DNA from: Branchiostoma belcheri
Lineage: Eukaryota
DNA: 64,000 nt
Assembly (NCBI RefSeq): GCF_001625305.1
Contig: NW_017803490.1
Span: 8,155,655-8,219,654, forward strand
Direction: 5' to 3'
Part shown: piece after piece, positions 7,029 through 50,376 of the stretch
Layout: every line of letters starts with the position of its first letter
Numbering within the stretch: position 1 is the stretch's first letter
The notes under the pieces: model-generated
Told to the model about the DNA's origin: nothing
Database searches by the model: none
What the model saw: only the letters and a program-made list of their open reading frames with translations
Position numbers and translations under genes: made by a program

Positions 7029-7379
7029 CTTGCTGTAGTGTGGTATAGAAGCGTAAAATGGTAGCTAATAATTGCCCTTTGTCCAGCTGCATGTGACACA
7101 TTCCTTTGGGCAAAAACATGTCAATCATGTGAGTTGAAGTTGTTTGGTTTATAGTTACGGTAAACTGAGTTTACTGTGCCCTTCTTGATGTATTTACACA
7201 AGACTCTTTAAACTTTGCCGACTGCACGTCACTCACATACTTGCACAGATAGCGTTTTCAGAGCACGTCAGCAGAACGTACTGCGTCTGCGCGAAACCCT
7301 GATTTTTGGTTGGATGTTTGGTCAACGTTGCACCAGAATTTCGTCTGTTGCAGACGGGGGTCCCACCAATTCTCCATTG

Positions 7380-7860
7380 GTTTCAGGGTTAGGCAGCAGG
7401 GAGAAGGTTAACCTTTAGCACACTGAAGTAGCCATTTGGGGACCAACTCTCTACTGGTTATAGAGTTAGGCAGCAGGGAGAAGGTTAACCTTTAGTACAC
7501 TAATGTAGCCATTTGGCGACCAATTCTCTATTGGTTACAGGGTTAGGCAGCAGGGAGAAAAGGTTAACTTTTAGCACACTGAAGTAGCCAATTGGGGACC
7601 AACTCTCTACTGGTTACAGAGTTAGGCAGCAGGGACAAGATTAACCATTATAGCACACTGAAGTAGCCATTTGGAGACCAATTCTACTGGTTACAGAGCT
7701 AGGCAGCATCGGGCAGGATTCGAACCCTGAACCTCTGGGGTCTGAATTTGAGCCGAACACTCTACCATTACGCCACACGACCCCACTGATGGGAGAAGGT
7801 TAACCTTAAGCACACTGAAGTAGCCATTTGGGGACAACCAAGGTGCACTAGCCAGTAATT
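7380..7860 (-). mobile_element. tRNA-derived SINE (tRNA-like head at about 7700-7790, minus strand) with a tandemly amplified 60-bp tail repeat, about 6 units.
   Basis: The minus strand reads GGGGTCGTGTGGCGTAATGGTAGAGTG…GGTTCGAATCCTGCCCGATGCTGCC, with tRNA-like D and TΨC regions. The 60-bp repeats flank it. Confidence 0.65.
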
Positions 7861-11450: not shown

Positions 11451-11556
11451 CTTGCCTCGGTGGGGTAGACTAAGTGAAATATATCCCCTGGTGACGCACT
11501 CGTCTGTTGAGTTGAAGTTGTTTGGCCAGTAAAATAACGCCGCTGTTTTGTTACTG

Positions 11557-11568
11557 TGTATAAATAAG
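11557..11568 (-). promoter_or_regulatory. TATA-like element (TGTATAAATAAG) about 110 bp upstream of the gene C start codon, within the conserved 5' flank.
   Basis: TATAAATA motif. The same motif, with surrounding sequence conserved, lies upstream of gene D. Confidence 0.35.
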
Positions 11569-11962
11569 CACCTCTCAATTACAAAAGACCCTGTGCCCTT
11601 CAAAACAGTAGGGTTGACCCTAAACCTAACCTTATCGCTGACCAAGACTCAGGTAAGGTGAGTAGACGTTCTTTTGTCTTGTCTGTACAGTAGCTATAGA
11701 AGATATAGAAGACTGGTAACCAGACCCATGTGAGCTCAGAGCCTTCGGCGCTGGTAGTGTTTTGGGCCGCAAAACCGTAGTGTTTCGGCCCCGCGCGTCG
11801 GGGGTAGATTTTTATGTTTACCTTAAACAGCATGCATTTGCTTTCAAATGTTATTTTTCTACAACGATGTAGTTGCAGACAGTTTAGGTTTGTTCGCTCA
11901 CAATGCGGTCGGTGCGCAGTAGAAGACTGGGGACATGTCTGTGGGTATAGCTCGCCTGTGCT

Positions 11963-12205
11963 TAGGTCGGGGGTAGGAAAATCGTAGCCTCTACCAGGCA
12001 CCGCGGATCGCTTGAAAAATATTAGAAATTGGCCGAAATAAAGGAATAATACCAGGGGAGTTAGCCGGCCAGAGAAGCTCAACATGCGACAAATTGGAGC
12101 TTCTCTGGCCAGCTAACTCCCCTGGTATTATTCCTTTATTTCGGCCAATTTCTACTATTTTTCCAGCGATCCGCGGTGCCTGGTAGAGGCTAGGAAAGTC
12201 GCCCT
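11963..12205. mobile_element. MITE-like hairpin. A near-perfect inverted repeat with about 95-bp arms (11980-12080 and 12097-12190), only a few mismatches, and a 16-bp loop.
   Basis: The left arm 'cctctaccaggcaccgcggatcgcttgaaaaatattagaaattggccgaaataaaggaataataccaggggagttagccggccagagaagctc' is the reverse complement of the right arm. The 'ggccaatttctactattt' core is shared with the 46660-47080 family. Confidence 0.8.
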
Positions 12206-12833
12206 CCAGCCAACCCTAAGGTAATTGGTACCCAGGCTAAGTGGCTTACACCAGACGTTTAGTGAAATATTTACCGTAAACAAACTTTACGGTTAACCGT
12301 GCCATGTTAGACTTTACTGAGTGTCTAAATTTACAAACTAACAAAAGACCGAGGTCACTGGCCTGTACATAACAGATTAATTAACAAGTCACTTGGAAGT
12401 AAGTACGTCAATGAGTCGCGGTAACAGGTGATATACCCAGGGGTATCGAGTCCTTTTTGGAAATTTGTCTAGTAAGTGAAAAGTCATTCGAGGTAAGCAT
12501 CTAGATGTACATCTAGTTTTTCTAGCTGTACATCATTCGCAGCCCAGTACAAACTGTGCTTAATATCATGATTTCTGTGACTTCGCTCTTCACTCTGGTC
12601 AGGAGCAAGAAAGAATTGACCCCAAATGTAAGTTTCTTACATTATATTTCATTGACATGTGCAAGAAGACTAGGTAAATCTTCAATTCAGTAAATTATCA
12701 ATTACTGCTGCAATTCATAAATGAAACAATTGGCAACTAAATGTTATCCTCTTGTAGTGTGCCATTCTGCAACTCATTTAATGCAGATATCAAGTAATTT
12801 TCTAACTCCAGTATAGTCTCTGTTAGTATCAGG

Positions 12834-15065
12834 TTATGTATTTTTAATTAAGCATTCCTCAATCACCTTAGCAACATCACTGTGTCCCATTTCTATGGCA
12901 GCTTGATAGGGAGTTTTGCCAGTTTTGTCTGGTATAGAAACATCTGCCCCCGCTTCAATAAGTACTTTCACAGCTTCCATGTTCCCACAGTGTGCAGCTG
13001 TCCACAATGGTGTCTGTTCATCCTTGTTTGATTTGTTCAGGTCCGCCCCCGCTTTTATCAAGATGCTCACAATGACTACACCTTCACTTTCAACCACCAC
13101 CCACAGTGGCGTCCTTCCCATAATGTCTGCCTTGTTCAAGTCCGCCCCAGCTCGTATCAAGATGCTCACGATCTCGGCATGTTTACTCCACGCTGCCACC
13201 CAGAGTGGGGTCTCTTCCATGCTGTTTGCCTGGTCCAAGTCCGCCCCCGCTTGTGTCAGGATGCTCACAATCTCTGCACTTCCTCTCTCAGCCGCCACCC
13301 ATAGTGCAGTTCTTCCCTCATCATCTGCATTGTTCAAGTCTGCCCCCGCTTGTATCAAGATGCCAACAACCTCTGCATGTTTCCTCTTAGCCGCCACCCA
13401 CAGCGGAGTCCTTCCCAGAACACCTGCTGTGTCCAAGTCAGCCCCTGCTTGTATCAAGATGCTCACGACCTCTGCATGTCCATTCTCAGCTGCCGCCCAC
13501 AGTGGAGTCCTCCCCATGCTGTTTGCCTTGTTCAAGTCCGCCCCCGCTTGTATCAAGGTGCTCACCATCTCTGCATTTCCACTCTCAGCTGCAACGAAAA
13601 GTGCAGTTCTCCCCTCATCATCTGCTTTGTCCAAGTCCGCCTCTGCTTGTGTCAGCATGCCCACAATCTCTGTATTACCACTCTGAGCTGCCAGCTGCAG
13701 TAGAGTCTGCCCAATAACACTTGCTGTGTTTGCCCCCGCTCCAGGGTCTGCCCATTTCTGCAGCAGGAGTTTGACAATGTTAGGATGTCCTCCCCTCACT
13801 GCATCCCAGAGCGGTGTTTCTCCCTCGGAGTTCTGTGTGTTCACCTGTACACCTGCCTGTAGCAGGGTCTTCACCTTGTCTTCATCACCTGTCCAGGCTG
13901 TGATCCTTAACAGCGCATCTCTCCAGGCGTCTCTCAGGTGCTCGTAGGTTTGTGTAGATTCTTCGCCTGTTTCCTGCGTTTGTGTAGACTCCTCAGAGTC
14001 GTCACATTTTTCCTGCGTTTCTGACAACACAAACATGTCCATAGCTTCCTCCACTATCTCTTCCACTTCTTCTTCAAGCTCCTCCATTGTCAAAACGTCC
14101 ACCTCTAAGGGACAGTTGAGCCCAATGTTCTCAAACTCTGCCTGTAAGTCTGCGGCTAGCTCGCCACTTTCTTGGTACCTGTTTAATTCGCTGATGCTTT
14201 CGTCAGTTTTGGGAAACATCTGTACACAGATTGAAGATGACCACATTTCACCAATTTCGAAATCTTTGCAAAGTTTAAGGATGATTTCCTTGCACAAGTC
14301 TAGTCTACCACCATCGATTTGTGATAGGGCCTCTAACAGTTCTTCCCGAACAGATGATTTTACCACAAGATAGTAGCACTCCTTACGCTTTTGCTTTGCA
14401 AGCTGCATACTACTAACTGCTTTCAGTACAAATTTCGGGTCGCTCGAATGTCTGTGACTTTGTTGACTCTGTTTTCCTTTAGTGGCTTTTTTTGTTTTCT
14501 TACCAGTTTTCTTCTTGACTTTCTTGTTTTCTTTGCCTATCGATGATTCAGATGCCTGCGATGAGCTTGTGGCAGTAGACGGCAGTGTGGTATATTCAAA
14601 CTTGCCTTGCTTTGATCGTGGGCTAGAGACACTCTCTTCTGTGGAGTGTTGTTTAGGCGGTGAACTCGAGAATCCTGTTGAAATATCCGATAATGGTGGG
14701 GACACCGTCTCAACGACTCGACACTTTTCAGTGACGTCTGTGTTGAGCTGTGGATCGGCATCCCGTAGGTCTGGGTACTTGTCTTTCAGTCTGTCCACGA
14801 GGTCTTGTCTTTTTATCTTCTGTAAAGCGTGCAGAAGATCCTGTACTGTCGCCTGCTTTCCTTCTTGTTGCCTCCATTTTTCCAGCATGGTACGGTTCCG
14901 CCATATCAGGTGAATTGTCGGACTCCTATTAACCATTTCCTCGACAACGTTATACTTCAGTCCTAATGCTAAGCCTAGGTCGATCCAGTCATCCCCCAGG
15001 TCTGACTGTATAGTGTCAAAAGCTGCCTTCAACTCTGTCTCTGCGTTAAAACCAACCGCTGCCAT
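12834..15065 (-). CDS. Gene D. A 743-aa DD-ANK paralogue: DD, linker, unknown module, acidic tract, then about 9 ankyrin repeats.
   Basis: Uninterrupted track ORF. N-terminus MAAVGFNAETELKAAFDTIQSDLGDDWIDLGLALGLKYNVVEEMV. ANK repeats (RTPLWAAAENGHAEVVSILIQAGADLD…). Confidence 0.85.
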   Translation of the reverse strand: MAAVGFNAETELKAAFDTIQSDLGDDWIDLGLALGLKYNVVEEMVNRSPTIHLIWRNRTMLEKWRQQEGKQATVQDLLHALQKIKRQDLVDRLKDKYPDLRDADPQLNTDVTEKCRVVETVSPPLSDISTGFSSSPPKQHSTEESVSSPRSKQGKFEYTTLPSTATSSSQASESSIGKENKKVKKKTGKKTKKATKGKQSQQSHRHSSDPKFVLKAVSSMQLAKQKRKECYYLVVKSSVREELLEALSQIDGGRLDLCKEIILKLCKDFEIGEMWSSSICVQMFPKTDESISELNRYQESGELAADLQAEFENIGLNCPLEVDVLTMEELEEEVEEIVEEAMDMFVLSETQEKCDDSEESTQTQETGEESTQTYEHLRDAWRDALLRITAWTGDEDKVKTLLQAGVQVNTQNSEGETPLWDAVRGGHPNIVKLLLQKWADPGAGANTASVIGQTLLQLAAQSGNTEIVGMLTQAEADLDKADDEGRTALFVAAESGNAEMVSTLIQAGADLNKANSMGRTPLWAAAENGHAEVVSILIQAGADLDTAGVLGRTPLWVAAKRKHAEVVGILIQAGADLNNADDEGRTALWVAAERGSAEIVSILTQAGADLDQANSMEETPLWVAAWSKHAEIVSILIRAGADLNKADIMGRTPLWVVVESEGVVIVSILIKAGADLNKSNKDEQTPLWTAAHCGNMEAVKVLIEAGADVSIPDKTGKTPYQAAIEMGHSDVAKVIEECLIKNT

Positions 15066-15584: not shown

Positions 15585-15735
15585 AGGTACTCATTTACAC
15601 CTGAGTGAAGTGAGGAAAGTCGAGTATCTTTCCCAAGGGGCACAACTATCGGTGACATCGGACAGGATTTAAACGCAGGACCTCTTGGGTCTGAGCCGAA
15701 CACGCTACTGCTACGCCACACGACCCCAGCCTTTG
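15585..15735 (-). mobile_element. tRNA-derived SINE copy (same family as 7700-7790), with the conserved 'cacctg…gtgaggaaagtcg' tail.
   Basis: The minus strand reads ggctggggtcgtgtggcgtagcagtagcgtgttcggctcagacc…gcgtttaaatcctgtccgatg. Tail similarity to 41390-41460 and 38120-38165. Confidence 0.6.
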
Positions 15736-16079
15736 TGAAGGAATGGGCGACCAACCGTCTCTGTGACATCACTTTATGCAAAAGGACACGTAACCCGGTG
15801 AAAACATTTTTTAATTCATAACAATCAAGAAAACTTTACATTAACTAATAATATTAATTAACCATTCATGTCACAACCATTACATTTTGTACAGCTTACA
15901 AATTGTGTCAATGAACTACTAGTAATTGAAAAATCACTTAATATTCGAACATTAAAAAATGAGGTATATACATGTACACATAAAAATATGAAATAATGTG
16001 TTCTAAAGGCTTTTGAAGTTGACTGTATGTAAAGTGAACATTTTGAGCAAGTCGCTGCCACCATCAATTGAAAAGTTGC

Positions 16080-16645
16080 TGGATTTTAATCAAAGCCGGT
16101 GTAATGTAGCCAGTTGCCGCCGCACCGCATGCCTGTGAAGCTGGTGTACATGTTACGCCAAATGGCAGTTATACCGGCTATACAGATACAAAGCCGCACA
16201 GATAAAAAGTACAGTATGAAATGGCATTGATATGAAACCTTTTAAGTTGTAACCCAATATTTTGTGTCAAATTCTCCAGCCACTCTCAGAATTTCTATTT
16301 TTAATGAGAGGTAAGTTTCTTTTACACTATGTTGCCTTTTTTATGACAAGATAACTGCATGTTTATGTAGGAAATTTTTTCCTAGAAGTATCGCAGAGTG
16401 GAACTCGCTGTCACCAAGTACAGTAGGGGCATTGTCATTAGATTGCTTTAAACAATGTCTAGAGCTAGAAGTTCAAGGGTTAGGTGTAACAAGTCGACCG
16501 GTGAAATGTAGCCAGCTGCCGCCACGCCGTGTGCCTGAGAAGCTGGTGTGTTACGCCGAAGGGCGGTTATACCGGCTATACAGATACAGAAGCTGGTGTG
16601 TTACGCCGAAAGGCGGTTATACCGGCTATACAGATACAGAAAATG
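16080..16645. repeat. Dispersed repeat family containing a tandem subunit of about 50 bp ('ttacgccgaa.ggcggttataccggctatacagatacagaagctggtgtg'). Copies lie at 16080-16200 and 16495-16645, inverted copies at 53040-53225, and a fragment at 36490-36545.
   Basis: Seen directly. Confidence 0.65.
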
Positions 16646-16974
16646 TTGTGTCAATGAACTACTAATACCCTGGCAGAACTGAACAGTAAACTTAACAGTA
16701 AACGTAACTTTAATAATAATAATATACTTCACTTTTCATGGAAACTACTGCACCACTTTAACAGAGTGAACATTCGGTGTCCCCAGATGAACTTTACCAG
16801 CTTGACCTGCGACCTTTCTCTGGTAGATCCCAGACTGGGACTGCTGCAAAGGCTGCTGGGACTGGGAAGGCATTCTGGGATACCGCGCAGCTGTGGCATG
16901 CCCAATAGTTTGCTGTGGATGGAAAACAAGATATTACATAAATTTTGCAAAAATTAAAAATACATGTATCACAT

Positions 16975-17087
16975 TCACAATATACACACACCATATCACA
17001 TACACACACACACATATCACACACACACACACACACACATATCACACACACACACACACATATCACACACACACACACACACACACA

Positions 17088-17127
<40 letters not shown>

Positions 17128-17140
17128 ACACAGACAATTT
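16975..17140. repeat. (CA)n / (CACACATAT)n microsatellite
   Basis: Seen directly. Confidence 0.95.
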
Positions 17141-17329
17141 AGAGTTTTAGCACTATACATTCATCAAAAACTGCATCTAAAATTCAAGATGACCCTTTTC
17201 AGGCTTTAGGGGCAATTCAGATCGTGTTGTTCACTCGTTTTGTTGGGACCAATAGTGGAGGTGTGAACAATCCACTGGCAGATAGTTAGAAAACATTATG
17301 AGCGTCTCTGTCCTTGGTGCTGAATGCCT

Positions 17330-17743
17330 TCACTTAACAACAGTTACTTTTTGAGGCTGTAGGGACAGTGGGTTGTTATGCACTGTGTCTGAGGCACAGT
17401 ATTGGAAGGTGGAGCCCATCCCTCTCCTTCCACTGCCTTTTACCTCCCCAACTGAGGTCAGGTAACCATTAATTTTACACAGGCGCAATATATTTTGCCA
17501 AAGTGCTTCCCTATCAACAATACAACATGCAAATTGTTTTGTTTTGACTGTTGCCATGCCAACCACCTGAGTGACAGGATGATGCCTCTCCACCATGACT
17601 GAACTCATGGGCGGGGCCAGTCCCATGGCAACCGGACCCTTCCCAGCATGCCCCAGTCGTGGGCCCTCTTGCTTGGCTGTGACCTTGGCTGTGATTGTCC
17701 TTGACCCCGGCTTCTGGGCTGTGGATGACCTTGAGCTCGGTGC
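17330..17743 (-). CDS. POC5: POC5 terminal coding exon (C-terminal region). It may contain an optional 87-nt intron.
   Basis: The track ORF contains AMGLAPPMSSVMVERHHPVTQVVGMATVKTKQ, matching the conserved POC5 C-terminal motif 'MGVSPPMSSVVVEKHHPVT'. Acceptor 'ctgtttcaag|GCACCG' at 17745/17744. Stop at 17330. Confidence 0.55.
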   Translation of the reverse strand, partial: APSSRSSTAQKPGSRTITAKVTAKQEGPRLGHAGKGPVAMGLAPPMSSVMVERHHPVTQVVGMATVKTKQFACCIVDREALWQNILRLCKINGYLTSVGEVKGSGRRGMGSTFQYCASDTVHNNPLSLQPQKVTVVK

Positions 17744-18146
17744 CTTGAAACAGTGACACAGCAAAATAACATTAACCACAGAAAATTTGGATCTAAACAA
17801 AGTATTAGCTACAAGATATATACACGTATTATGAAAAAACTTACATAAATACTTGTCAAGGTTGAGATGAGAATTTTATGGAATTTTCAAGCAGGCTGTG
17901 AAAGAACCAATTGTGAGTAAAGCCTAAAGACAGAATTTTCTGTAAAAACAATGCTGAATCATATACATGTAATACATGTACATGCATCTATCACCATTCA
18001 ATGAATGCCACCAGTTTCTGATCAAAAAGCAAATGTGATTGAGCACTTTTAATAAATATGACAAATTTTCAAATAATAAGTTATGAATGAGACCAGTGCC
18101 CCACTAACTACAAAAACAAACGTTAATTTCTGTAACTAAGTCTTAC

Positions 18147-18316
18147 AGTTTTGGTAGCAGGTCTGGCAGTACTGAAGCTGACGGTGGGTCTGGGAGGGGG
18201 CTGCTGGCTGGTGACCACGCGGGGAGGGGCTGCATGGGGGGGTCCTGACTGGTACACCTCCTCGTGGGGCACTACTGTACCCCCTTCCTCAGCCTGGGGG
18301 TCTGCTGGCCTACCTC
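18147..18316 (-). CDS. POC5: POC5 exon (proline-rich region)
   Basis: Acceptor 'ttccttttccaccccag|GAGGTAGG'. Donor 'AAAACT|gtaaga'. The phase is compatible with the flanking exons. Encodes a Pro-rich segment (…PHAAPPRVVTSQQPPPRPTV…). Confidence 0.5.
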
Positions 18317-19193
18317 CTGGGGTGGAAAAGGAAAGCAATAAGACTTACATGTAAATAACATCATATTAGACAATAATCAGATTCTGACTAAAGATTTCTC
18401 TAAAGCACTGTACATGTGTACTTACTTGCACTTATTGAGCTCTTTCATGTTGAGTTTCTTCTACTCTACCAACTGTTAATGTATACGTGACTGGTGAACC
18501 TCTTCTACGGTAAATTCTTCTTACTTAAAAAAAAGCATGCATGTCAGGTGAGCGACAACAGCTGGGATTCAACCTCTTGGTCCAGAGGCAGGGTTGCCTC
18601 TAACCCCTTTTTTAGAGGAACAAGAATTTATTGTAGAAGAGGTTCACCAGTCAGGTATAGATTAACAGTTAGTAGAATAGAAGAAACTCAACAGAGAAGA
18701 GCTCAACAAGTGCAATGAAATTATCTGGTGCTTTCCTTTAACTTAAACTAAAGACTTGAAGAACAAACGGAGCAAAACCAAACCCACCCTGTTCTCCCTG
18801 GTGAAACATGGACATGGCCTCCATGTTGAGGGCACAGACACCGCGCATGAACATGTGCAAGTCGGGTGAGTGACAACAGCGGGAATTTGAACTCCCAACC
18901 TTTTGGGTTGCTTAAACCACTGGACTTAGCACACTTTTTTAGAGCAAGAACTTGATATTTGAAGAATAATCAGAGCAAAAATATGTTTAAAGTTAAAATT
19001 TTTGATCCAACACCTCAAGAGCTTTCAACCTGTCAGATACCTTTGACCCAGTTTTGATGTCACACTTCAAAAAAGCTACGTGACAAGCCTCACTGGTACA
19101 GTCTACTGAGGAAGACCTGAGTGACTTTAAACATGTAACTACCAACAGAGACTTTCATGATAGAGCAAAAATATGTTTTCCGTCAATACCGAC

Positions 19194-19344
19194 CCTGTTC
19201 GCCCTGGTGGAACATGGACATGGCCTCCATGTTGAGGGCGCAGACACCACGCATGAACGCTTTTTTCATCGTCTCCTCGTACTGGTCTCGGTCACCGTGG
19301 AGACGGCTTACCTCATTCCGTGCCGCCTCTAGGGCTTCATTCAA
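19194..19344 (-). CDS. POC5: POC5 exon encoding the conserved 'MKKAFMRGVCALNMEAM' motif
   Basis: Acceptor 'ttccctgccctacag|TTGAATGAAGCC'. Encodes LNEALEAARNEVSRLHGDRDQYEETMKKAFMRGVCALNMEAMSMFHQGEQ, which matches the POC5 'DSMKKAFMRGVCALNLEAM' block. The donor is weak (G|gtcggt) and was placed by phase. Confidence 0.55.
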
Positions 19345-19913
19345 CTGTAGGGCAGGGAACAGGGTAAAGAGAATAAATGGCTGCATGTTGTTTAACATGT
19401 CTCTACATTAATTTTACTTAATGGCAAGCTGAAACAATTTGAGTTTGTTAACACTGAAGTCCTTAAAAGAAAGTAAATTGCCCTTTTTCTTGGCAGCATT
19501 TGGTAGACTTTCAGAACTAAATTAATGATTCCACCAAGCTGAACATCAATCTTTGATTTATCATAAAAATTTGATCACGTTCTTATATACCACTAATTCA
19601 TGATCATGATCAGATTCATTGTAAAACTGAAAGAGTTGATTTTAAGTTGTATTTTATTTAATCAAAATTAATATACTGACAAAAAGTGTAGTAGGTCTCT
19701 GGACTACATGTACATACATGAAAGTATAATGTAAGCATGTTGAAACATTGGCTCCCACAGCTGAACAGTAGCCGACCTCACAGAACAACAGCCAAATACA
19801 GCAGACCTTGCTCCCAACCTACTCCTAACCAGGGTTGGGGGGAGTTCGGGGGCCTAATTTGGCTATATGTGACAGGGGCTTGAAGTTGAAGTATAGGTAG
19901 CAGGACTACTTAC

Positions 19914-20093
19914 TGATGATATCCTTGCTTCGTAATCATTAGTCAGTTGCATGCAGACCTCCTGGGCCTTGGCCTGACACGCCCGCTCCACACGTTGCCT
20001 CCACTTGGCCTCGATAACGCCGTGCCAGGCTGACCAGACACGCGCTGAGATCTTCTGTTCATAGTGCTTACGGGCCAGGTTACTCGCAAACGC
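19914..20093 (-). CDS. POC5: POC5 exon
   Basis: Acceptor 'ttttctcccctccccag|GCGTTTGCG'. Donor 'TCATCA|gtaagt'. Encodes AFASNLARKHYEQKISARVWSAWHGVIEAKWRQRVERACQAKAQEVCMQLTNDYEARISS, matching the POC5 '…[30 protein letters not shown]' block. Confidence 0.65.
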
Positions 20094-20169
20094 CTGGGGA
20101 GGGGAGAAAATAGTGCAGTGTTAGAAATACCCATCTGCAGTCTGCATTTTTCAAAGACATTTTCAATAT

Positions 20170-20500
20170 TCAATATATAGAAGTCCAAATACTACGTAAG
20201 TGTTAATGGGCGTAAAATCCCCTCCTAGCTCTGATTGGCGGATGTTCTTCCGGCAATGAGATATAGGAGGTTACCATGTAATCTTATCTTTCAAATAGCT
20301 CTGTTAGCATTTAATTTAACATTTTAATGTCTTGGGGTGGTGGGACTACGGTGCACAGATATGTCAACTTTGTATATTTAAATGTTAATTGTACCTTTTT
20401 TGTTGTGTGGCGCTGTTAATATAAGTTGTTAACTTGAGTGCATCGTCACACTGTCCTTGTTATGTCTTTATGTTTTGATGAATGAAAAAAAAATATATTG
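20170..20500 (+). repeat. Dispersed repeat of about 330 bp. An inverted copy lies at 36600-36930, about 95% identical.
   Basis: 'gtccaaatactacgtaagtgttaatgggcg…ctctgattggcggatgttcttccggcaatgagatataggaggttaccatgtaatcttatctt…' matches the reverse complement of 36600-36930 almost base for base. Confidence 0.8.
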
Positions 20501-21161
20501 CAGGAAGAAACATTAAGCAACCTGCAATTCTGTAAACTGAAAAAATCAGACTATCCAGAACCATTCCTGACCATGATTCTGAAGAAAGCACGATTTTCGA
20601 TATGTGTGAACTAGAGCTGTGTACCTAAACAAATTTTAGGTACAGGTACAGGTACACAGGTTTAGGTACAGGTCCGGACCTGAACCTGTACCTGAACAAT
20701 TCGACCAGTGTATATGCTCTTCTGAACTCCTGTAATAACTAGAAAAACATTGATATAGGTTTAATTTTTGTTTATGGAGAATGTTCAGATAAAATACAGG
20801 TAAAAGTAAAGATGTTTTTGTTTTCATGAACACACAGGGACCCATTGTTAACCAGCTATTTACACATTTGAGGTCACAAATAGGCATAAAATTGGTGTGA
20901 AATTGTTTAGGTACAGTACCGGTACTGAGGGATTAGGTATTTTGGACCTGTACCTAATCAATTTTTCCGGTACAGTATCGGTACTGCGTACCGGTACACA
21001 GCTCTAGTGTGAACCCAGAATATTATCTGAGCATGGTTTCTAAATATACCGGTAACAAATTTTATGGATAAGGATACAACATGCAGCATATGGATACAAA
21101 AGTTGCAACGTATGGCGACAAAAATTGCAACACAATTCTGGATATGCCACAGATTTCTCAC

Positions 21162-21360
21162 CTCCCTCCTCTCGTCAGCGTGTCGCAGCTTCCACTGCAC
21201 CATGGCCCGCAGCATGTCAAACTTTTCCTTCTGTCTCTGCAGCGCCTGTGTGAGGTTAGAGATGACCTGGTCCTTCCGCTGGATGGACTGCTCGTACGTG
21301 TGGAGTAGCTCTTTTAGGCTCTCTATCTCGTTCTGCAGCTGGCTCACCTCTCGGGCATGT
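21162..21360 (-). CDS. POC5: POC5 exon (coiled-coil)
   Basis: Acceptor 'ttttttag|ACATGCC'. Donor 'GGGAG|gtgaga'. Encodes HAREVSQLQNEIESLKELLHTYEQSIQRKDQVISNLTQALQRQKEKFDMLRAMVQWKLRHADERRE, compared with POC5 '[47 protein letters not shown]'. Confidence 0.65.
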
Positions 21361-21753
21361 CTAAAAAATGTTTAACATCGTGACCAATTAACAGTCTCAC
21401 ACACACACACCGCTTCCAAAAGAATGAGATCTCAGTCTACTAACGGAGGGCATGTTCAGCACCAAGGACAGTGCACAGTTGCCACAAGGAAATTCCAGTC
21501 ATGGCACTGCAACATGATTTCATAGGCTGCTACAAATTTCCCAGTGAACAATTACTGTATGGATAAATTGTGTTGACTCATTCTTACATGACAAATTCAA
21601 TTCCCAGTCCGTCTGTCAATGTCCCTTCTCTATCTGCTCAGACTAACACCCACCAATACCCGCAATTGTGAAACCTCACGTTCCTGACAACCATTAATCT
21701 TTGTGCTACAATGTACTTCTATAAGAAAATGTGAATTACACATAATAATTTAC

Positions 21754-21824
21754 CTTTCCTGCTCTGCCCTCATTTCAAGTCGGTGTCTCTCGATCAGAGC
21801 AATCTTGGCCTGCGTAAACTCAGC
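21754..21824 (-). CDS. POC5: POC5 exon
   Basis: Acceptor 'ctgccaccag|GCTGAG'. Donor 'GGAAAG|gtaaat'. Encodes AEFTQAKIALIERHRLEMRAEQE, compared with POC5 '…WHRMEMRKEKEK'. The phase links exactly to the next exon. Confidence 0.55.
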
Positions 21825-22018
21825 CTGGTGGCAGAATGAAGTATGATAAGACATAAAATATTAAAACAATTGTTTAATTCATGCAGGTCAGAAATTACTG
21901 CGCAAATCTGTTGCAGTGTACTGTTCTTCAGTTTGTTGAATTTCTCTTGAGGAATCTGCACTATATTTCAAACATGGCTAAAACAAACTGACATCCAGGC
22001 TGCAGGGGCATGCGAAGC

Positions 22019-22153
22019 TGAGTGAGTTAGTGAGTGAGTGAGTGAGTGAGTGAGTGAGTGAGTGAGTGAGGGAGTGAGTGGGTGAGAGTGATTGAGTGAG
22101 TGTGAGTGAGTGAGTGAGTGAGTGAGTGAGTGAGTGAGTGAGTGAGTGAGTGA
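22019..22153. repeat. (GAGT)n microsatellite
   Basis: Seen directly. Confidence 0.95.
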
Positions 22154-22384
22154 GTGAGCAACTGCGATAGACTTGACACCAGGTTAGAGTCCCTTACCAG
22201 TATACCCCTCTTGAGGTCCAGTGCCCAGTTGTCCAGATGTGCCTCTATCCTGGCCACAATATTGTGGTACATCAAGGCTTAAACTCCTGTCATTAAAGAC
22301 CTACTGGGAAACCTAGCTGTATTCGGCAGGGAAGAGAACCCATCCCAACTACAATAGACTGGACACCAGGTTAGAGTCCCTTAC

Positions 22385-22581
22385 CAGAACGCCCCTCTTG
22401 AGGTCCAGTGCCCAGTTGTCCAGATGTGCCTCTATCCTGGCCACATCCTGGTCCACAGCCGGCGACGCCGCTGACCGCTCGCTGTACGGAGAACATTCGC
22501 TGACCGTCGACGATTCTTCGCTCTGTGGCGTCTCGGGCGGAGCCACATCAGTGGAGCGTATGGAGAGGCCTGGGGTGATAG
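22385..22581 (-). CDS. POC5: POC5 exon
   Basis: Acceptor 'atttccccaactgcag|CTATCACC'. Donor 'GTTCTG|gtaagg'. Encodes a Ser/Pro-rich segment ending …DVARIEAHLDNWALDLKRGVL. Confidence 0.55.
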
Positions 22582-23408
22582 CTGCAGTTGGGGAAATAAT
22601 GCAGAAATAATACAGAATGTGAGTTAGTATAGAGGCTCCACCTAGCAACTTTGAATTGAACTGAACCATCAGTACTTGTCTTCCTTTTAATGCCCACGAT
22701 CATCATTCATACTGATCATTCTGGCATGCCAATTCTTGGCAAGACTCGGGATTGTAGAACAGCCCATGGACAGGTCAGGGGTTAACAGAGCAACTTGCCA
22801 TTGGGATGGCATACATGTACATACATGTATGTACGACTAATAAGCACCTAATAAAAGGAAAACACACCTGCTAAAGCAAAGCAAACAATGTATAAGGCTA
22901 AGGCATTGAAGATCCTATATGTAAATACTACCGTAACGAACCTGAATGGGTTTATTTTAAGACAGTGTCGAAATGGGACTTTCCGTACACGTCAGTCACC
23001 TGATATGCAAACTATTCTGAGTATTCAACAACTTCAATGCCAAGGTATGTCATGTTTCAAGGCTTGCAATATGACAACACTGGAAAAGCTGGTTTGCCCC
23101 ATTAGCATGTGTTTGTTATGCAATGGCACTGCATGGGTGACCTGTTAGCTATGCAACAAAGCCAGGGTCTTTTATCATTCCTTGACTGAGGCGGTAAACC
23201 GTTATCTTACACACGTCCGTGACGCTTATATGGTTCCGAAGTTTGCTTACTTTGCTTTGCTCAATGTTTAACTGAATTCTTGTCTTGGACAACTTCTGGC
23301 CAAACAACTTCTGTTCGCACCTGTAGGAACTGCAAATATAATTAGATTCACCCCTGCCACTGGACTGAGTAACAAAGTTAACGCAGAAGGAAGTAAGCAG
23401 AAAACAAA

Positions 23409-23585
23409 ATGGATGCAGCTTTCAAGAACTCACAAAACCACCTTGGTGAGGACTGGTTACACTTGGCTTTATATCTGGAACTGGGCTTTGTGAACATACA
23501 GCAAATCCGGAGAGAGAAAACCTTGACATGGCAAGTGGTGTCATTTTACTGGGCAAACAACTTCAACCCAACAGAGGAGTGAGTC
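23409..23585 (+). other. Upstream ORF (58 codons) in the gene E leader. It encodes a degenerate death-domain N-terminal fragment (MDAAFKNSQNHLGEDWLHLALYLELGFVNIQQIRREKT…), then the conserved 'FYWANNFNPTEE' leader, then TGA.
   Basis: Read directly from the sequence. It resembles the DD start 'ELDAAFDILQSELGEEWTQLALELGLKYN' of the main ORF, 43 nt downstream. Confidence 0.4.
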
Positions 23586-23627
23586 AGCAGGGAATATATT
23601 TCACTTAGTCTACAAGACTACGGCAAG

Positions 23628-25856
23628 ATGGCGACCGGAGGTAACACAGAGCCAGAGTTGGACGCAGCTTTTGACATTCTACAGTCAGAGCTGGGGGAGG
23701 AATGGACACAGCTTGCCTTAGAATTAGGGCTGAAGTACAACATTGTCGAGGAAATGGTTACTAAGAGTCCGACAATTCACCTGATATGGCGGAACCGTAC
23801 CATGCTGGAAAAATGGAGGCAACAAGAAGGAAAGCAGGCGACAGTACAGGAACTACTGCTTGCTTTGAAGAAGATAAAAAGACAAGACCTCGTGGATAGA
23901 CTGAAAGACAAGTACACATATCTACAGGATGCTGATCCACAACTCAACACAGACGTCACTGAAAAGTGTCGAGTTGTTGAGACGGTGACGCCTCCGTTAT
24001 CGGATATTTCTACAGGATTCTCGAGTTCACCGCCTAAACAATACTCCACAGAAGAGAGGGTCTTAAAATCTAGCCCACGATCAAAGCAAAGCGTGATTGA
24101 AAATACCCCATCAGTTCCATCTACTGCCACAAGCTCATCGCATTCGTCTGAATCATCTAAAGGCACAAAAAACTTGAGAGTCAAGAAGAAAACTGGTAAG
24201 AAAACAAAAAAGGGCACTAAAGGAAAACAGAGTCAACAAAGTGACAGACATTCGAGCGACCCGAAATTCGTACTGAATGCAGTTAGTAGCATGCAGCTTG
24301 CAAGGGAAAGGCTTAGGAAATGCTACTATCTTGTGGTAGAATCGTCTGCTCGGGAAGAAATTTTGGATACGATTTTACAAATTGATGATAGTAGTCTAGA
24401 CTTGTGCAAGGAATTCATCAGTAAACAATGTAAAGATTTCGATACTGGTAAAACATGGAAATCTTCAATCTATGTACAGATGTTTCCCAAAACTGCCGAA
24501 AGCATCAGCGAATTAAACAGGTACCAAGAAAGTGGCAAGCTGACTGCTGACTTACAGGCAGAGTTTAAAAACATTGGGCTCAAGTGTCCCTTAGACTTAG
24601 AGGTGAAAATTCTGACAATGGAAGAGCTTGAAGAAGAAGTGTCAGAGATAGTGGAGGAAGCTATGGACGTCTTTGTGTTGTCAGTAACCCAGGAAACAGA
24701 TGAAGACTCAGAGGAGTGTACACAAACGCAGGAAACAGATGAAGAATCGTCACAAACCTACGAGGAACTGAGAGACACCTGGAGAGATGCGCTGTTAAGG
24801 ATAACAGCCTGGACAGGTGATGAAGACAAGGTGAAGACCCTGCTACAGGCAGGTGTACAGGTGAACACAGAGAACTCCGAGGGAGAAACACCGCTCTGGG
24901 ATGCAGTGAAGGGCGGACATGCTAACATCGTTACACTTCTGTTGCAGGCTGGAGCAAATCCAGACATGGTTGACGCGAATGGCTCTACTCCACTTCTCCA
25001 TGCTACTTCTCTTGGGTACCTGGAAGTGTGCAGGACACTTGTGTGTGGCGGTGCGGATGTCAACATGGCAGATACAAAACTAACACAAACACCCCTTCGG
25101 ATAGCTATAGAGAAGTCTGACTGGCTGATGCTGACTACGCTTATCCGCCCAGCCAAACACTCATGCGCCAATGACAATGTAAATAAACCTCTGGGTACGT
25201 TTGGTGGCAGCCCGCTCTCTTTGTCTGTTAAAAAGCTCACAGACTTTGAAAAAGGCATTGACACTGAGTCTTCCATGGTAGAGTGCAGGCGTGAGTGGTA
25301 CGAGGAATGGTGTGATCACGTCAGAATTTTCGAGATTTTGTGCAGAGCTGGAGCTAAGAATAAGATTGACTCTACCGACAGACTTGGCCACACATTACTG
25401 CAGTCTGCCTGCAAAGAAGGTTGTGCGATGACAGCAAAACTACTGCTAGACAACGGGGCAGACCGTGACAAACAGGACGACAAAGGTAGAACTCCGATTT
25501 GGGTGGCAGCTTGGCAGGGACACGCAGAGATTGTTAGCGCTTTGATACAAGAAGGTGCTGATTTAAACAAAGCGGACACAGAAAAAAAGACACCGTTGTG
25601 GATAGCTGCAAGAAAAGGGCATGCAAAAGTTGTTAAGACACTTATTGAAGCAGGGGCAGACATTTCTTTACGGGACAACACTGGTATGACCCCACTCCGT
25701 GCTGCTACTAAAAGTAGGCAGATGAATCGGCATGCTGTTGTCTCAATGCTTGTGAAAGCTGCTAGAAGAAAACCATGTGTAGAGAGAGTTAGAAAGACAA
25801 GTTCCAGGGAAAAGTCACCTGGTTATCATACTACTGAGGACTTTGAATATGGCTGA
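23628..25856 (+). CDS. Gene E. A 742-aa DD-ANK paralogue on the opposite strand. Same DD, linker, module and acidic architecture, but a diverged C-terminal ankyrin region that is interrupted.
   Basis: Track ORF MATGGNTEPELDAAFDILQSELGEEWTQLALELGLKYNIVEEMVTKSPTIHLIWRNRTMLEKWRQQEGKQATV… The module (FVLNAVSSMQLARERLRKCYYLVVESSAREEILDTILQIDDSSLDLCKEF…) and the YEELRDTWRDALLRITAWTGDEDKVKTLLQAGVQVN motif are nearly identical to gene B. ANK repeats (GRTPIWVAAWQGHAEIVSALIQEGADLNKAD…). Confidence 0.85.
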   Translation: MATGGNTEPELDAAFDILQSELGEEWTQLALELGLKYNIVEEMVTKSPTIHLIWRNRTMLEKWRQQEGKQATVQELLLALKKIKRQDLVDRLKDKYTYLQDADPQLNTDVTEKCRVVETVTPPLSDISTGFSSSPPKQYSTEERVLKSSPRSKQSVIENTPSVPSTATSSSHSSESSKGTKNLRVKKKTGKKTKKGTKGKQSQQSDRHSSDPKFVLNAVSSMQLARERLRKCYYLVVESSAREEILDTILQIDDSSLDLCKEFISKQCKDFDTGKTWKSSIYVQMFPKTAESISELNRYQESGKLTADLQAEFKNIGLKCPLDLEVKILTMEELEEEVSEIVEEAMDVFVLSVTQETDEDSEECTQTQETDEESSQTYEELRDTWRDALLRITAWTGDEDKVKTLLQAGVQVNTENSEGETPLWDAVKGGHANIVTLLLQAGANPDMVDANGSTPLLHATSLGYLEVCRTLVCGGADVNMADTKLTQTPLRIAIEKSDWLMLTTLIRPAKHSCANDNVNKPLGTFGGSPLSLSVKKLTDFEKGIDTESSMVECRREWYEEWCDHVRIFEILCRAGAKNKIDSTDRLGHTLLQSACKEGCAMTAKLLLDNGADRDKQDDKGRTPIWVAAWQGHAEIVSALIQEGADLNKADTEKKTPLWIAARKGHAKVVKTLIEAGADISLRDNTGMTPLRAATKSRQMNRHAVVSMLVKAARRKPCVERVRKTSSREKSPGYHTTEDFEYG

Positions 25857-26348
25857 TAATCTTGATATCTGGGCTGGAAATACTGGGTTCATTTTATGTA
25901 TATTTTATATATATATATTTTATGTACTTTTGTGCACCGGGTTCTGAAATTGCCACAGAGTGCAAATACCAGTAATTTGCCTGTGGGTGCATCCTACACC
26001 ATGTAGATATTTGCGTACTTGTAGTAGTAGTAGGGTTATATATGTATTACACTGAATAATTGTGAAATTAAACATTGTGTTTTGCAGCCATTTTGAAGAT
26101 AGTTTCCCTTATTATGACGTCTTACTACATTTTGTAATTGTAGTATTAATATTCGTAAGAATGGTAGAAACATTAGTGAGTGGTTTAGAATCTAAGATAA
26201 AGATGAAATAAAACTCCTACAATAAGATTATAACTTAAGGTAATAATTAAAAAAGGTACACATGTACTAGATACACAGCCTTACAACAAGTTACATGCAC
26301 TACTACTACTACGTATGTCAAAGAATCTTGGCCATCTATGTAGCTCAC

Positions 26349-28560: not shown

Positions 28561-28989
28561 GGCGAGAGTCAAACCTTTTCACATTCCCATGATGCATAGC
28601 GACAAGGGGTAGAATCTCCCAGGTTGCATAGCGCAAGGATGACGGAACAAAAACAAACTTTTGGCGTTTACAGTTTGATTTTCTGTGTGTTTTGGCGTCT
28701 TGGGGCATTTTGTGTTCAAAAATACAATCCAACAACAATTAGTGTGTAAAATTCTTGTGGTTTATAGACTTCTATAGACGTTTACAAACCACAAGAAGTT
28801 CACACCATATTTTTTAGACAGGTAGACGTTACAGGTGTTTATCGTTGAAGAGGTTCATCAGTCACGTAGAATTAACAGTTAGTAGAAATTCACTGATCGA
28901 AGAATTTCTACGAACTACAGGTGTTTAATGTTTTTATACCATACTTTTCGTTCCCGGGACTTATATGTCTCCAACGGGCATGAGACGAC

Positions 28990-30250
28990 AGTTCCAGGAA
29001 ACGACAGTTCCAGGAAACTGTTTTTACAGGATTTCAGAGGCGTCTAGCTGCAGGAGTTGGCAATTATTTTATGGGCCGGCGGAGGTACTGTTTCTGACAG
29101 GAATACCTAATCTTGGTAATAATATCTTATGGTATAGATTTTATTTGGTGCAATTCTTCTGAAGTTTCTCAGGCCTTCGAAACTGTTTTTAAAAGATTTC
29201 AGAGGCTTCTAGCTGCAGGAATTGGATCTTATGGACCGAGGAGATAGTGTTACTGTCCCTCACAGGAATACATATTCTCCGTAATGATGATTCACTTTTG
29301 CTTTATTGGGTTCAATTTTACCAAGGACATGTGATGAAAGCTTCTTGATTTTACTGAACTCTTCCGCAAGCCTTGGAAAACTGTTTTTATAAGATTTCAG
29401 AGGCTTTTAGCTGCAGGAGTTGGCAATTATCTTAAGGGCCGGGGGAGGTATACTGTCCTCGACACTTACAGGAATACCTAATATCTGGTAATTTTATTTT
29501 ATAGATTTTATTTGGTGCAATTCTGCTGAAGTTTCGCAGGCCTTAAGCTTGGGAAACTGTTTTTAGAAGATTTTAGAGGCAGGAGTTAGCAATTATCTTA
29601 TGGTCCACGGGAGGTAGTGTTACTGTCCCTGGCCGGAATACCTAATATGCGGTAATGATATTTATGATATAGATTGTATTTGGTGCTATTCTACTGAAGT
29701 TTCTTAGGCCTTGGGAAACTGTTTTTAGTAGATTTCAAAGGCTCCTAGCTGCAGGAGTTGGCAATTATCTTAAGGGCCGGGGGAGATAGGGTTGCCGTCC
29801 CTCACAGGAATACATATTCTCGATAATGATGTTTCACTTTTGCTTGATTGGGTTCAATTTTACCAAGGACATGTGATCATAAGCTTCTTGATTTTACTGA
29901 ACTCTTCCTCATGCCTTGGGAAACTGTTTTAGAAGATTTCTGAGGGTTCTAGCTGCAGGACTTGGTAATTTATCTTATGGTACAGGGGAGATACTGTCCC
30001 CGCCAGGAATATTAGTATCTAAACTCGGTACTGATACTTTCAAATGGTGCAATTTTACTGAACTCTTCCTCATGCCTTGGGAAACTATTTTAGTAGATTT
30101 CAGAGGCTCCAAGCTGCAGGAGTTAGCAATTATCTTGTGGGCCGAGGGACCGTAGGAACATTTCCTACTTGGTAATGATATTTTATGGTACAGATTTTAT
30201 TAGGTGCAATTTTGCTGCATTCTTTCTCAGGCCCCGGGCACTGTAGGTAG
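28990..30250. repeat. Satellite-like tandem array, about 180-bp unit x about 7 ('gaaactgtttttacaggatttcagaggc.tctagctgcaggagttggcaattatc…')
   Basis: Period of about 170-190 bp seen directly at 29017, 29185, 29385, 29560, 29725, 29910 and 30080. Confidence 0.8.
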
Positions 30251-36599: not shown

Positions 36600-36930
36600 C
36601 GTTAATCTTTTATGTCTGTTGAAGTTTTTTTTTTTATTCATCAAAACATAAAGACATAACAAGGACAGTGTGACGCTGCACTCAAGTTAACAACTTATAT
36701 TAACAGCGCCACACACAAAAAGGTACAATTAACGTTTAAATATACAAAGTTGACATGTGCGCCGTAGTCCCACCACCCGAAGACATTAAAATATTAAATT
36801 AATGCTAACAGAGCTATTTGTAAGATAAGATTACATGGTAACCTCCTATATCTCATTGGCGGAAAAACATCCGCCAATCAGAGCTAGGAGGAGAATTTAG
36901 GCCCATTAACACTTACGTAGTATTTGGACT
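36600..36930 (-). repeat. Inverted copy of the dispersed repeat at 20170-20500
   Basis: See the feature at 20170-20500. Confidence 0.8.
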
Positions 36931-38084
36931 TCTATATCTAATTGACTGTTAGAAACAGTCAAGCAGAGCTATAGCAGCGCTTGGTATCTCCAATGTAAAC
37001 CTGAGTGAGTTGCATCGTTTTAAAGTTGTACATAGAGGGTAACATTGAGGAGCCTCTAAGAATAAAGTGCAGTTTAGCATTATCTGACATATTATTAAGG
37101 TTGACAAGATGACCAAGTAAATCTGCAAGATTGCCAAAAAGTTCCGATCTGTCATTTGAAGTTCCAGGAGGCATCTCTGTGAAATCAGCTGCATGTAAAA
37201 TCGCGACCACGCTCTATTAAGTTCGCGTCCTAAAACCCGATATGCCTAATTACAGGCGATGCCACGGAAAGATCTTACACGACCTGGGGGTGATGCGCTC
37301 CCAAACGTAACGGTTTAAAAGCTCTCCTGTCAGCACCTGTGTGCTTGTATGACGCAAATATCGTCCTATGGGACAACCCACCTCACTGAGCTTAAAATTT
37401 ACACATCAGGGCTAGAAATTCATTTTGGGGATAGGTACAAGGTACAAGGTACACTGGTCCACCCAGCCTCAAACATTGGGTGCACAAAAATTTGGGGTGC
37501 ACCATATAAGATAAGTAGAATATCAGCAAAAATTAATTATGTTTCACTTCTAAGGAAAAGTAGTACAAGATGATTTTATCATTTGTCTAACACTTAGATG
37601 TTATAAGAATATGCTGTATAAAACTATACATTTGGCATCTTTACATACGTAAACTTACGAAAATATTTGGGTGCACTAGAACAAAAATTAGGTGAACTGC
37701 TCCAAATTTGGGTACTAAGGTGCACTTGCAACCAGTATTTCGAGCCCTGACTATAGTATCTCACTACTTCTCAAACATAGGCGAATTGTGCACGCGCTGT
37801 AGTGCAGAAATCACTTATTTACTGTGAAATGGGGGATCCGTTAAAACTGGAGATACTCAGAGATAACCGGGTATATCAGTCGTGTGTTGTTACTCGCTAG
37901 AAGAAAGCTCGAGTTGTCGTAGAAAAGAGGTTATCGCTAAATCCTTCCTTGACGTAATCGCGAGGACAGACGTCATCCGTTTTCGTCAGACGTATTTCGT
38001 GGATGTATGAACGTGCGTCACGGAAGTCATGGCGCTTTTTTTTCTGCCATGTCGACTCCTTAAGGCAGAGGGACGTGTGACGTA

Positions 38085-43129: not shown

Positions 43130-43850
43130 CTTTACATGGTTAAAGGCAACTACAGATTGCACTCACTATTTTATTAACGAATCTTCCCTTAATACATCGA
43201 GGAGCCATCACCCCTCCTAAACCATCTAACGCACCGTCCCCAGGTAGCAAATTTCCAGACCTAACACTCCTCTTTGGAAGATGTTTCCGGAAGCGAGTTT
43301 TGTATCTCTAACGTTACATGCGTGTCCCTTGTACGGTAGTTGTACCCATGCCATTTTTCATTAACGAATCTTCCCTTAATATACTATAGGGACATGATAG
43401 GACATTCTCCCTAAATCATCTAACGTACCATCCCCAGGTACCAAATTTCCAGACCTAATACTCCTCTAGGTAAGATTTTTCCGGAAGCGAGTTTTGTAAT
43501 TCTAAAGTTTAAGAAGCATGTCCCGATGCCATTTTTCATTAACGAATCCTCCCTTAATATATTATAGGGACATGCATCCAAAGCATCTAACGTACCATCC
43601 CCAGGTAGCAAATTTCCAGACCTAATACTCCTCTCGGTAAGATGTTTCCGGAAGCGAGTTTTGTAATTCTGAAGTTTAACATGCATGTCCCTTGCACCAA
43701 AGCAATTTTTGATTAACGAATCCTCCCTTGATATATTATAGGGAAATCCCCCCTAAATCATCTAACGTACCGTCCCCTGGTACCAAATTTCCAGACCTAA
43801 TACTCCTCTCGGTAAGATGTTTCCGGAAGCGAGTTTTCCGTGCAATCAGC
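43130..43850. repeat. Tandem array, about 175-bp unit x about 4 ('ttattaacgaatcttcccttaata…catctaacg.accgtccccaggtagcaaatttccagacctaa.actcctct…gatgtttccggaagcgagttttgta')
   Basis: Period seen directly. Confidence 0.85.
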
Positions 43851-50267: not shown

Positions 50268-50300
<33 letters not shown>

Positions 50301-50376
50301 GAATCCCTCCTCTTTCTCTCACTCACTCACTCACCCACTCTCTCTCTCACTCACTCTCCCTCTCTCTCCCCTCCAG

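Follow-up and report, generated by a model that had tools for sequence, protein, structure and literature searches.

Duplicated exon-intron boundaries in the POC5 gene of Branchiostoma belcheri, a further case of a known lancelet peculiarity

Introduction

Lancelet genes are known to carry short duplications that straddle an exon-intron boundary. These minisatellite-like duplications, described in Adh3, TnC, the globin genes BflGb6 and BflGb9, and PGBD5 (PMC3087553, PMC3902484), are called mirages, a name coined for Adh3 (Canestro et al. 2002, as cited in PMC3087553). According to Ebner et al. (PMC3087553), mirage units measure 10-160 bp and may occur at either end of an exon, haplotypes differ in copy number and in the length of the repeats, and copies within a cluster evolve in concert; the mirages were without effect on splicing, and their mechanism of origin was stated to be unclear. 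Pavelitz et al. 2013 (PMC3902484), who also list TnC, described imperfect 60-bp and 108-bp repeats over the splice sites of lancelet PGBD5. Here we analyze a stretch of 64,000 nucleotides from Branchiostoma belcheri (NCBI RefSeq assembly GCF_001625305.1, contig NW_017803490.1, positions 8,155,655 to 8,219,654 of the forward strand; hereafter the window), in which the ends of two coding exons of the POC5 gene recur, each with its splice donor, in the downstream intron. Partial duplicates of POC5 exon junctions had been claimed in an initial annotation made from the letters of the window, which did not recognize that duplicated exon-intron boundaries are an already described feature of lancelets. 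With a probability of about three in four, in our estimate, the POC5 copies are mirages, that is, short local duplications spanning an exon-intron boundary.

Related arrangements are found in vertebrates. In intron 7 of the human F7 gene, a variable number tandem repeat of 37 bp contains several donors, of which only the most upstream is used while the others are functional (PMC1557585), and boundary-spanning minisatellites also occur in CBS, LMNB2, PDGF and the interferon-inducible 6-16 gene. A review (PMC3443670, with the Rogers model, Gao & Lynch 2009 and Hellsten et al. 2011), moreover, presents the tandem duplication of splice signals as an accepted route to new introns.

Two exon ends of POC5 recur in the downstream introns

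The POC5 gene lies on the minus strand of the window, from about 27700 to 16743, as traced by exon translations, tblastn and named POC5 homologues. A joined query of 221 residues matched proteins of birds, fish, Saccoglossus (70%) and Batillaria (60%) as well as partial Branchiostoma floridae models, a full-length Branchiostoma POC5 protein was not returned by the protein search, and the C-terminal exons share 87-95% protein identity with B. floridae. Coding exon 8 (19194-19344, minus strand; translation, tblastn, POC5 homologues) encodes LNEALEAARNEVSRLHGDRDQYEETMKKAFMRGVCALNMEAMSMFHQGEQ(G), ends with FMRGVCALNMEAMSMFHQGEQ, and is followed by the live donor CAGG/GTCGGT, with its GT at 19193-19192. 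The last 65 bases of this exon, the donor and about 10 intron bases (19184-19258, minus strand) recur in the downstream intron at 18779-18852 on the same strand, 406 bp from the live site. In a self-comparison of the window the two stretches are 92% identical over 75 bp (E 1.4e-22), and by tblastn the copy matches the exon product at 100% over 23 amino acids. Its exon-like part (18788-18852) is followed by an intact donor, CAGG/GTGGGT, with the GT at 18787-18786.

Coding exon 5 (22385-22578, minus strand) ends with VARIEAHLDNWALDLKRGVL at the live donor CTG/GTAAGG, whose GT lies at 22384-22383. Here 61 exon bases and 39 intron bases (22346-22445, minus strand) recur in the downstream intron at 22159-22258 on the same strand (tblastn, comparison with a second B. 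belcheri locus), 187 bp from the live site, at 94% identity over 100 bp (E 4.9e-37, same self-comparison), and the GTAAGG donor is intact in both (GT of the copy at 22197-22196). Both pairs are thus direct repeats on one strand whose copies include the splice site and lie within the intron, between the live donor and the next exon; read-through of the live donor or use of the copy donor would lead to a stop within 3-12 codons at both sites. Since both copies contain intron bases, they did not arise from spliced mRNA. The partial duplicates of the initial annotation are therefore real, at about the coordinates it had given and well above chance, and alignment shows that they are homologous to the exon ends and not unrelated transposon insertions.

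Three further loci served for comparison. A single-exon gene with a death domain and ankyrin repeats, which neighbors POC5 in the window, encodes a protein 91% identical to one B. belcheri protein, and the locus encoding that protein in an independent B. belcheri assembly (GCA_025402995.1; hereafter L003) is collinear with window positions 16726-26008 at 82-93% nucleotide identity. By sequence, the window is lancelet DNA and belongs to the B. belcheri lineage, as either a divergent haplotype or a sister form. The other two loci are a B. floridae POC5-like locus (L001) and its counterpart in a B. floridae x B. japonicum hybrid assembly that is haploid by design (L002). We rejected L001 and L002 as POC5 orthologues: they hold exons 8-11 only, lie beside a 216-bp satellite, and show no synteny with the window, and the exons of L002 (9926-12352) contain in-frame stops and frameshifts. 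They are probably a partial POC5 paralogue or a pseudogene, judging from these features. The satellite array of 216-bp period, more than 6 kb long, lies directly upstream of the POC5-like exons 8-11 (L001 7002-8058, L002 1-6660).

In L003 the ends of exons 8 and 5 are single and the (GAGT)n block beside the exon-5 copy is absent. The copies of the window are thus missing from a related haplotype or species, one that carries other boundary duplications of its own. At exon 8, collinearity and comparison of flanks show that the L003-like intron is contiguous with the intronic copy and not with the live exon end, and the donor hexamer of the copy, GTGGGT, is identical to the L003 donor, while the live site reads GTCGGT. 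Likewise, the exon-5 copy is contiguous, by way of the microsatellite, with intron sequence shared with L003.

The exon-8 copy lies beside a rearranged SINE-like element

In L003 the exon-8 site is made up of a single exon end, intron sequence of about 70 bp, a single arm, and a single intact element resembling a short interspersed nuclear element (SINE), and we took this simpler arrangement as the reference state. In the window, the corresponding region contains a hairpin element (18426-18715) with a left arm at 18426-18532, a loop at 18533-18607 and a right arm at 18608-18715. Its arms are 89% complementary over 109 bp, and the DNA fold of the single strand reaches -97.7 kcal/mol (z -19). 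Measured against L003, the hairpin is an inverted duplication, in which an arm is set against the reverse complement of the arm plus the first ~100 bp of the SINE-like element; its loop corresponds to element positions ~21-102 (fragment A). A second partial copy of the element, fragment B (18853-18965, minus strand), lies beside the exon-8 copy and comprises L003 element positions 1-98 and the last ~25-30 bp of the adjoining arm.

True homology links the SINE-like stretches 18536-18640 and 18853-18965. Aligned with 18533-18645, the stretch 18853-18965 reaches a local score of 48, against 14.7 +/- 2.3 for random window segments of the same length (maximum 26, 2938 trials), whereas BLAST alone finds 39 bp at 79%. 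Read in the POC5 sense, the site therefore resolves into two degenerate head-to-tail units, 19258 to 18853 and 18852 to 18536, each with an exon end and intron start at its head and a SINE-like piece at its tail. Fragment B, the tail of unit 1, meets the exon-8 copy at a CATG microhomology (...gcaCATG/TTCATGCG...), and unit 2 ends as ...CATGC/tttttttt, with a CATGC microhomology to the exon, where the loop meets the 18426-18532 arm. With the SINE-like stretches homologous, exon 8 thus presents a tandem duplication that has degenerated and that terminates at a highly stable hairpin. The local duplication of about 300 bp including a SINE-like piece that the initial annotation had proposed is borne out by this alignment of units. 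The similarity that it had pointed to (gtgagcgacaacagc...ttttagag) is real as well, with the score given above, but most of the stretch it had assigned to one copy, 18480-18720, belongs to the hairpin.

Unit 1 has lost most of the arm and carries an insert of 173 bp (18989-19161, no strand assigned) between exact 17-bp direct repeats, agagcaaaaatatgttt, at 18972-18988 and 19162-19178. The insert has no match elsewhere in the window or in L001-L003. The 17-bp repeats have the appearance of a target-site duplication at an insertion, located 16 bp away from the donor in use at exon 8. Sequence comparison thus shows a deletion and an insertion clustered at the exon-8 site with duplications in both direct and inverted orientation, a pattern that would be expected from serial template switching at the hairpin.

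The label 'tRNA-like' is not borne out by tRNA detection programs. The L003 element has an A-box-like motif, TAGTCCAGTGG, at 14650-14660 and a B-box-like motif, AGTTCGAATCC, at 14696-14706 on the same strand, in the right order and 35 bp apart, within the 30-60 bp expected of such a pair, although each motif alone occurs at chance frequency. Neither ARAGORN nor Rfam (E up to 10) found a tRNA in window positions 18400-19000 or in L003 14400-15000. In the small sample of 64 kb and three loci, the element was represented by the two fragments of the window and its orthologous copy in L003.

Given these surroundings, a mobile element could be held responsible, such that a SINE, or an element like a miniature inverted-repeat transposable element, captured or transduced a POC5 fragment and inserted it nearby. 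The SINE-like piece that abuts the exon-8 copy, the adjoining 290-bp element with its 109-bp inverted arms, and the 17-bp direct repeats around the 173-bp insert would all fit this, as would a 50-bp fragment of the arm that recurs at 28838-28887, the sole further match of the SINE-like and hairpin pieces found in the window. We nevertheless consider such capture very improbable. The exon-8 copy lies outside the inverted arms (18426-18715), no second composite of SINE and exon was found in the window or in L001-L003, and the exon-5 copy is without any element features. Above all, L003 holds an intact SINE-like element at the orthologous position with no exon copy, so that the state of the window is a local rearrangement of resident sequence.

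The exon-5 copy is separated from its source by unrelated spacer DNA

At exon 5, the arrangement is different. Compared with L003, a block at 21973-22352 is extra, which comprises 46 bp, a (GAGT)n microsatellite of 36 units (22019-22158; on the POC5 strand, (ACTC)n), the copy, and a spacer of 87 bp (22259-22345) between the copy and its source. Neither the window nor L001-L003 contains a homologue of the spacer. At its junction with the copy lies a 14-bp palindrome, ccacaatattgtgg (22254-22267), and the exonic breakpoint falls between two direct repeats of 11-12 bp, ATCCTGGCCAC and ATCCTGGTCCAC. We rejected a strict tandem model for this pair, since the spacer lacks homology to the sequence beyond the microsatellite. 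The site fits a duplication with filler DNA and is no clean tandem repeat.

The copy starts 1 bp after the end of the (GAGT)n array, and the contact seen by the initial annotation is thus confirmed, as is a similar one in a neighboring gene of NCS (calcium sensor) type on the plus strand. There, the acceptor and the first 60 bases of exon 2 (live acceptor and exon start at 50371-50436) recur at 50201-50266 with 89% identity over 66 bp (whole pair 50201-50436), and the two copies flank a (CT)n/(CTCA)n tract at 50267-50368. Read along their respective genes, the tracts at 22019-22158 and 50267-50368 share a (CTCA)n/(CT)n motif. In both cases the tract is situated immediately downstream of the copy, so that pyrimidine-rich RNA would lie beside a pseudo splice site.

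Microsatellites might thus be the specific cause, with replication stalling or breaking at simple repeats, the flank being copied again, and the duplicates near exons arising as a by-product. Among 13 isolated local duplications, there are two with a boundary no more than 1 bp from the end of a microsatellite, where 0.18 would be expected (P 0.0145), but this test was post hoc, on the data that had suggested the idea, and turns on two cases. A 29-bp fragment of exon 7b in L003 (15913-15941) abuts a minisatellite as well. On the other side, no microsatellite lies at the ends of the exon-8 pair, of the tandem triplets in L001 and at exon 5 of L003 described below, or of a second boundary pair in the NCS-type gene. 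This pair (56666-57043, plus strand), which the initial annotation had not listed, repeats the exon end ...DGTVSKKELINVLT/gtgggg of 56666-56723 (protein ...VSKKELINVLT) 321 bp downstream at 56987-57043; the exon part is identical at 40 of 40 positions, an acceptor-like tttattcag stands just before the copy, and no microsatellite is adjacent. Furthermore, the (GAGT)n array is part of the block absent from L003, so that it need not precede the exon-5 duplication and may be younger than it or a part of it, and the (CT)n tract of the NCS-type gene could have grown from a duplicated polypyrimidine tract. We therefore regard microsatellites as an unlikely specific cause, and the association itself as suggestive. 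The microsatellite-associated duplication hinted at in the initial annotation is thus supported in part: the two contacts are real, but the exon-8 pair ends at a hairpin derived from the SINE-like element and the NCS donor pair has no microsatellite.

Boundary duplications at the comparison loci

Each comparison locus has boundary duplicates of its own. L003 repeats the acceptor boundary of exon 5 three times at 18252-18661, with a period of 143 bp and frame-breaking indels in the copies, and the acceptor boundary of exon 7b twice (15698-15767 and 16043-16112). In L001 the donor boundary of exon 8 occurs three times at 12171-12400 in tandem units of ~80 bp, and L002 has a duplicate of the exon-10 donor. 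In favor of the mirage interpretation, in the four POC5 loci (window, L001-L003) a junction is overlapped by 6 of the 7 local direct duplications that are not satellites. In the whole window, about 4 of 17 local duplications do so, which by a rough estimate from an incomplete exon list is not clearly above expectation. The third tandem unit of L001 is read as a 65-nt exon in an NCBI model of a B. floridae POC5-like protein (P0109), which gains a repeated GVCALNLEAMSMFHQG peptide, and exons 8 and 9 of L001 are out of frame if this exon is omitted. Although L001 and the window are both duplicated at exon 8, we rejected a duplication ancestral to the two: the units measure ~80 bp in the one and ~216-406 bp in the other, L002 and L003 are single-copy at this site, and the copies share species-specific substitutions with their own exon.

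In theory the intronic copies may serve a function, as alternative or poison exons or as extra U1-binding sites that tune splicing, and be kept by selection. The donors are intact in both POC5 copies, and the exon-8 copy keeps the GTGGGT of the B. belcheri locus. The changes avoid first and second codon positions, and even in the old copies of the L003 exon-5 triplet the exon-like halves are 84-90% like the exon, whereas the intron-like halves are at ~45%. P0109, finally, includes a tandem unit as an exon. However, L003, as the most closely related locus, lacks both copies; use of a copy donor with the intervening intron would bring an early stop; and neither copy appears to be preceded by a good acceptor in a frame-preserving position. 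P0109 is a computed model, the sister haplotype of its locus, L002, is a pseudogene, and the published mirages are not in mRNA (PMC3087553, PMC3902484). A selected function is thus most unlikely.

Differences between copy and exon fall on third codon positions in 11 of 13 cases overall, and after polarizing with L003 the same holds for all five copy-specific changes (5/5). Window exon, copy and L003 exon are about equidistant. We had taken the 4/4 synonymous differences of the exon-8 copy as a candidate sign of selection, an argument that is weakened by polarizing, which places two of the changes in the live exon. Possible reasons for the third-position pattern are gene conversion from the live exon, templating from another allele, given the high heterozygosity of the species, a bias of mutation at third positions rich in GC, and a quicker decay of intron sequence by indels; GC-to-AT mutation at GC-rich third positions could account for part of the remaining 5/5 bias.

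Assembly of a heterozygous genome

False haplotypic duplications occur in assemblies of heterozygous genomes (PMC9516828; PMC10013865), and the conserved exon end of a second haplotype could have been placed in series by the assembler where the graph broke, at the microsatellite, the SINE-like element or the hairpin. The POC5 pairs share with such errors the close, near-identical copies with allele-like differences, mostly synonymous and at third positions, and a setting of 3-4% heterozygosity; for lancelets 3.2-4.2% is reported, together with false duplications in earlier assemblies (PMC10013865). The near equidistance of exon, copy and L003 exon would be expected as well, each assembly has a private set of boundary duplicates, the breakpoints lie at sequences that break assemblies, and one globin mirage was aberrantly assembled in the draft genome (PMC3087553).

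Several features argue that the copies are nevertheless genuine. There is no N gap in the window (0 in total), hence none at a junction. The flanks of the copies are not allelic, and the stretches 22259-22345 and 18951-19183 have no counterpart by the other copy or in L003. The copies measure only 75-100 bp, and the joins rest on an overlap of 4-5 bp, too short for an assembler. Three diverged, indel-bearing copies, as found in the L003 and L001 assemblies, are impossible from two haplotypes, and a boundary duplicate is also present in L002, which is haploid by design. Published mirages have been confirmed by PCR or resequencing (PMC3087553, PMC3902484). An assembly error is accordingly improbable as a source of the POC5 copies, even if boundary copies of this kind can resemble one.

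Origin and consequences of the POC5 copies

At each POC5 site, the last ~60 bases of a coding exon, the 5' splice site and some intron would have been copied a few hundred bases away with orientation kept, probably by template switching in replication or repair, or by unequal exchange, at short microhomologies, with one breakpoint at a structure-forming repeat. At exon 8 this repeat would be the loop-stem boundary of the 290-bp hairpin that formed from the rearranged SINE-like element, and at exon 5 the edge of the (GAGT)n array, with 87 bp of filler DNA. The copy still joined to the rest of the exon would go on working, while the other would fall into the intron and be spliced out along with its duplicated donor. 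Being removed in this way, the change would be nearly neutral and could persist as a structural polymorphism. Template switching, neutrality and normal splicing are all steps that we infer. In all, the POC5 copies are probably nearly neutral structural variants, which arose where local template switching took place, at the hairpin in one intron and at the edge of the microsatellite in the other.

The likeness to published mirages is close. The host is a cephalochordate, the repeats are direct and cross a live boundary, extra copies with AG or GT signals lie in the intron, duplications occur on the donor or the acceptor side, haplotypes differ in copy number, unit sizes overlap, and the repeats of PGBD5 are likewise imperfect. 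Unlike in mirage arrays, there are two copies per POC5 site, set apart by unrelated DNA of 87 bp or by 331 bp that include the SINE-like piece and the 173-bp insert. In contrast to the published cases, breakpoints at a hairpin and a microsatellite are on record for POC5, and the gene and probably the species (B. belcheri lineage) are new.

Several points weigh against this interpretation. The exon-5 pair is no strict tandem, with 87 bp of unrelated spacer and the microsatellite following the second copy; the copies number two per site and are imperfect, where classical mirages form multi-copy arrays; L001 and L002, which supply part of the comparison, are probably a partial POC5 paralogue and not the orthologue; and the excess of third-position differences, an unexplained detail, would not be predicted if an intronic copy were free to decay.

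As in F7, an authentic donor is followed by pseudo-donors in the intron, but F7-type minisatellites are multi-copy, with 4 exon bp per unit in F7, compared with 61-65 exon bases and distances of 187-406 bp in POC5. By analogy, the use of only the most upstream donor in F7 would explain how copies of the POC5 type can be harmless. Intron gain by internal duplication shares with POC5 the small intragenic duplication of splice signals that is tolerated through spliceosomal removal, yet no new intron or exon has formed in the window, and an existing boundary is spanned rather than an exonic AGGT. The next step predicted by that route, a unit becoming an exon, is shown on paper by P0109.

A more far-reaching proposal is that boundary duplications are over-produced at junctions, through structure-forming repeats or through repair linked to transcription or splicing, and that the exon-like halves are then kept by gene conversion or selection and serve as spare splice sites and as seeds for new exons and introns. 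We hold this proposal to be improbable; were it true, the B. floridae model with its third unit taken as an exon would illustrate it. On present evidence, neither the junction-overlap excess nor the third-position excess amounts to a new kind of biology, and the POC5 case is a further example of a known lancelet oddity.

As such, it adds POC5 and the neighboring calcium-sensor gene to the lancelet genes with duplicated exon-intron boundaries, with at least four independent events in a single gene, counted over haplotypes and species. In addition, it supplies detail on breakpoints that is missing from the published cases, namely a SINE-like hairpin, a microsatellite edge, microhomologies of 4-5 bp, and filler DNA. 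Finally, boundary copies mislead gene predictors, as in the NCBI model with a repeated peptide that derives from one.

Genomic surroundings

Five genes with a death domain and ankyrin repeats, each a single open reading frame and 75-93% alike in DNA, are clustered in the window, at 4944-7028, 8586-11645 and 12834-15065 (minus strand), at 23628-25856 (plus strand), and at 1-2400. One of them sits inverted within a POC5 intron, and in L003 the copy nearest to POC5 is oriented oppositely to that of the window. A repeat of 319 bp at 20175-20493, also in a POC5 intron, recurs inverted at 36626-36937 with 94% identity and probably represents a dispersed element of recent origin. The window is also rich in tandem arrays, whose periods range from 77 to 190 bp (7365-7708, 29013-30233, 39701-40896, 43409-43837, 48291-48689 and 63343-63774); short tandem duplication is frequent across the whole window, and exons are not its sole location.

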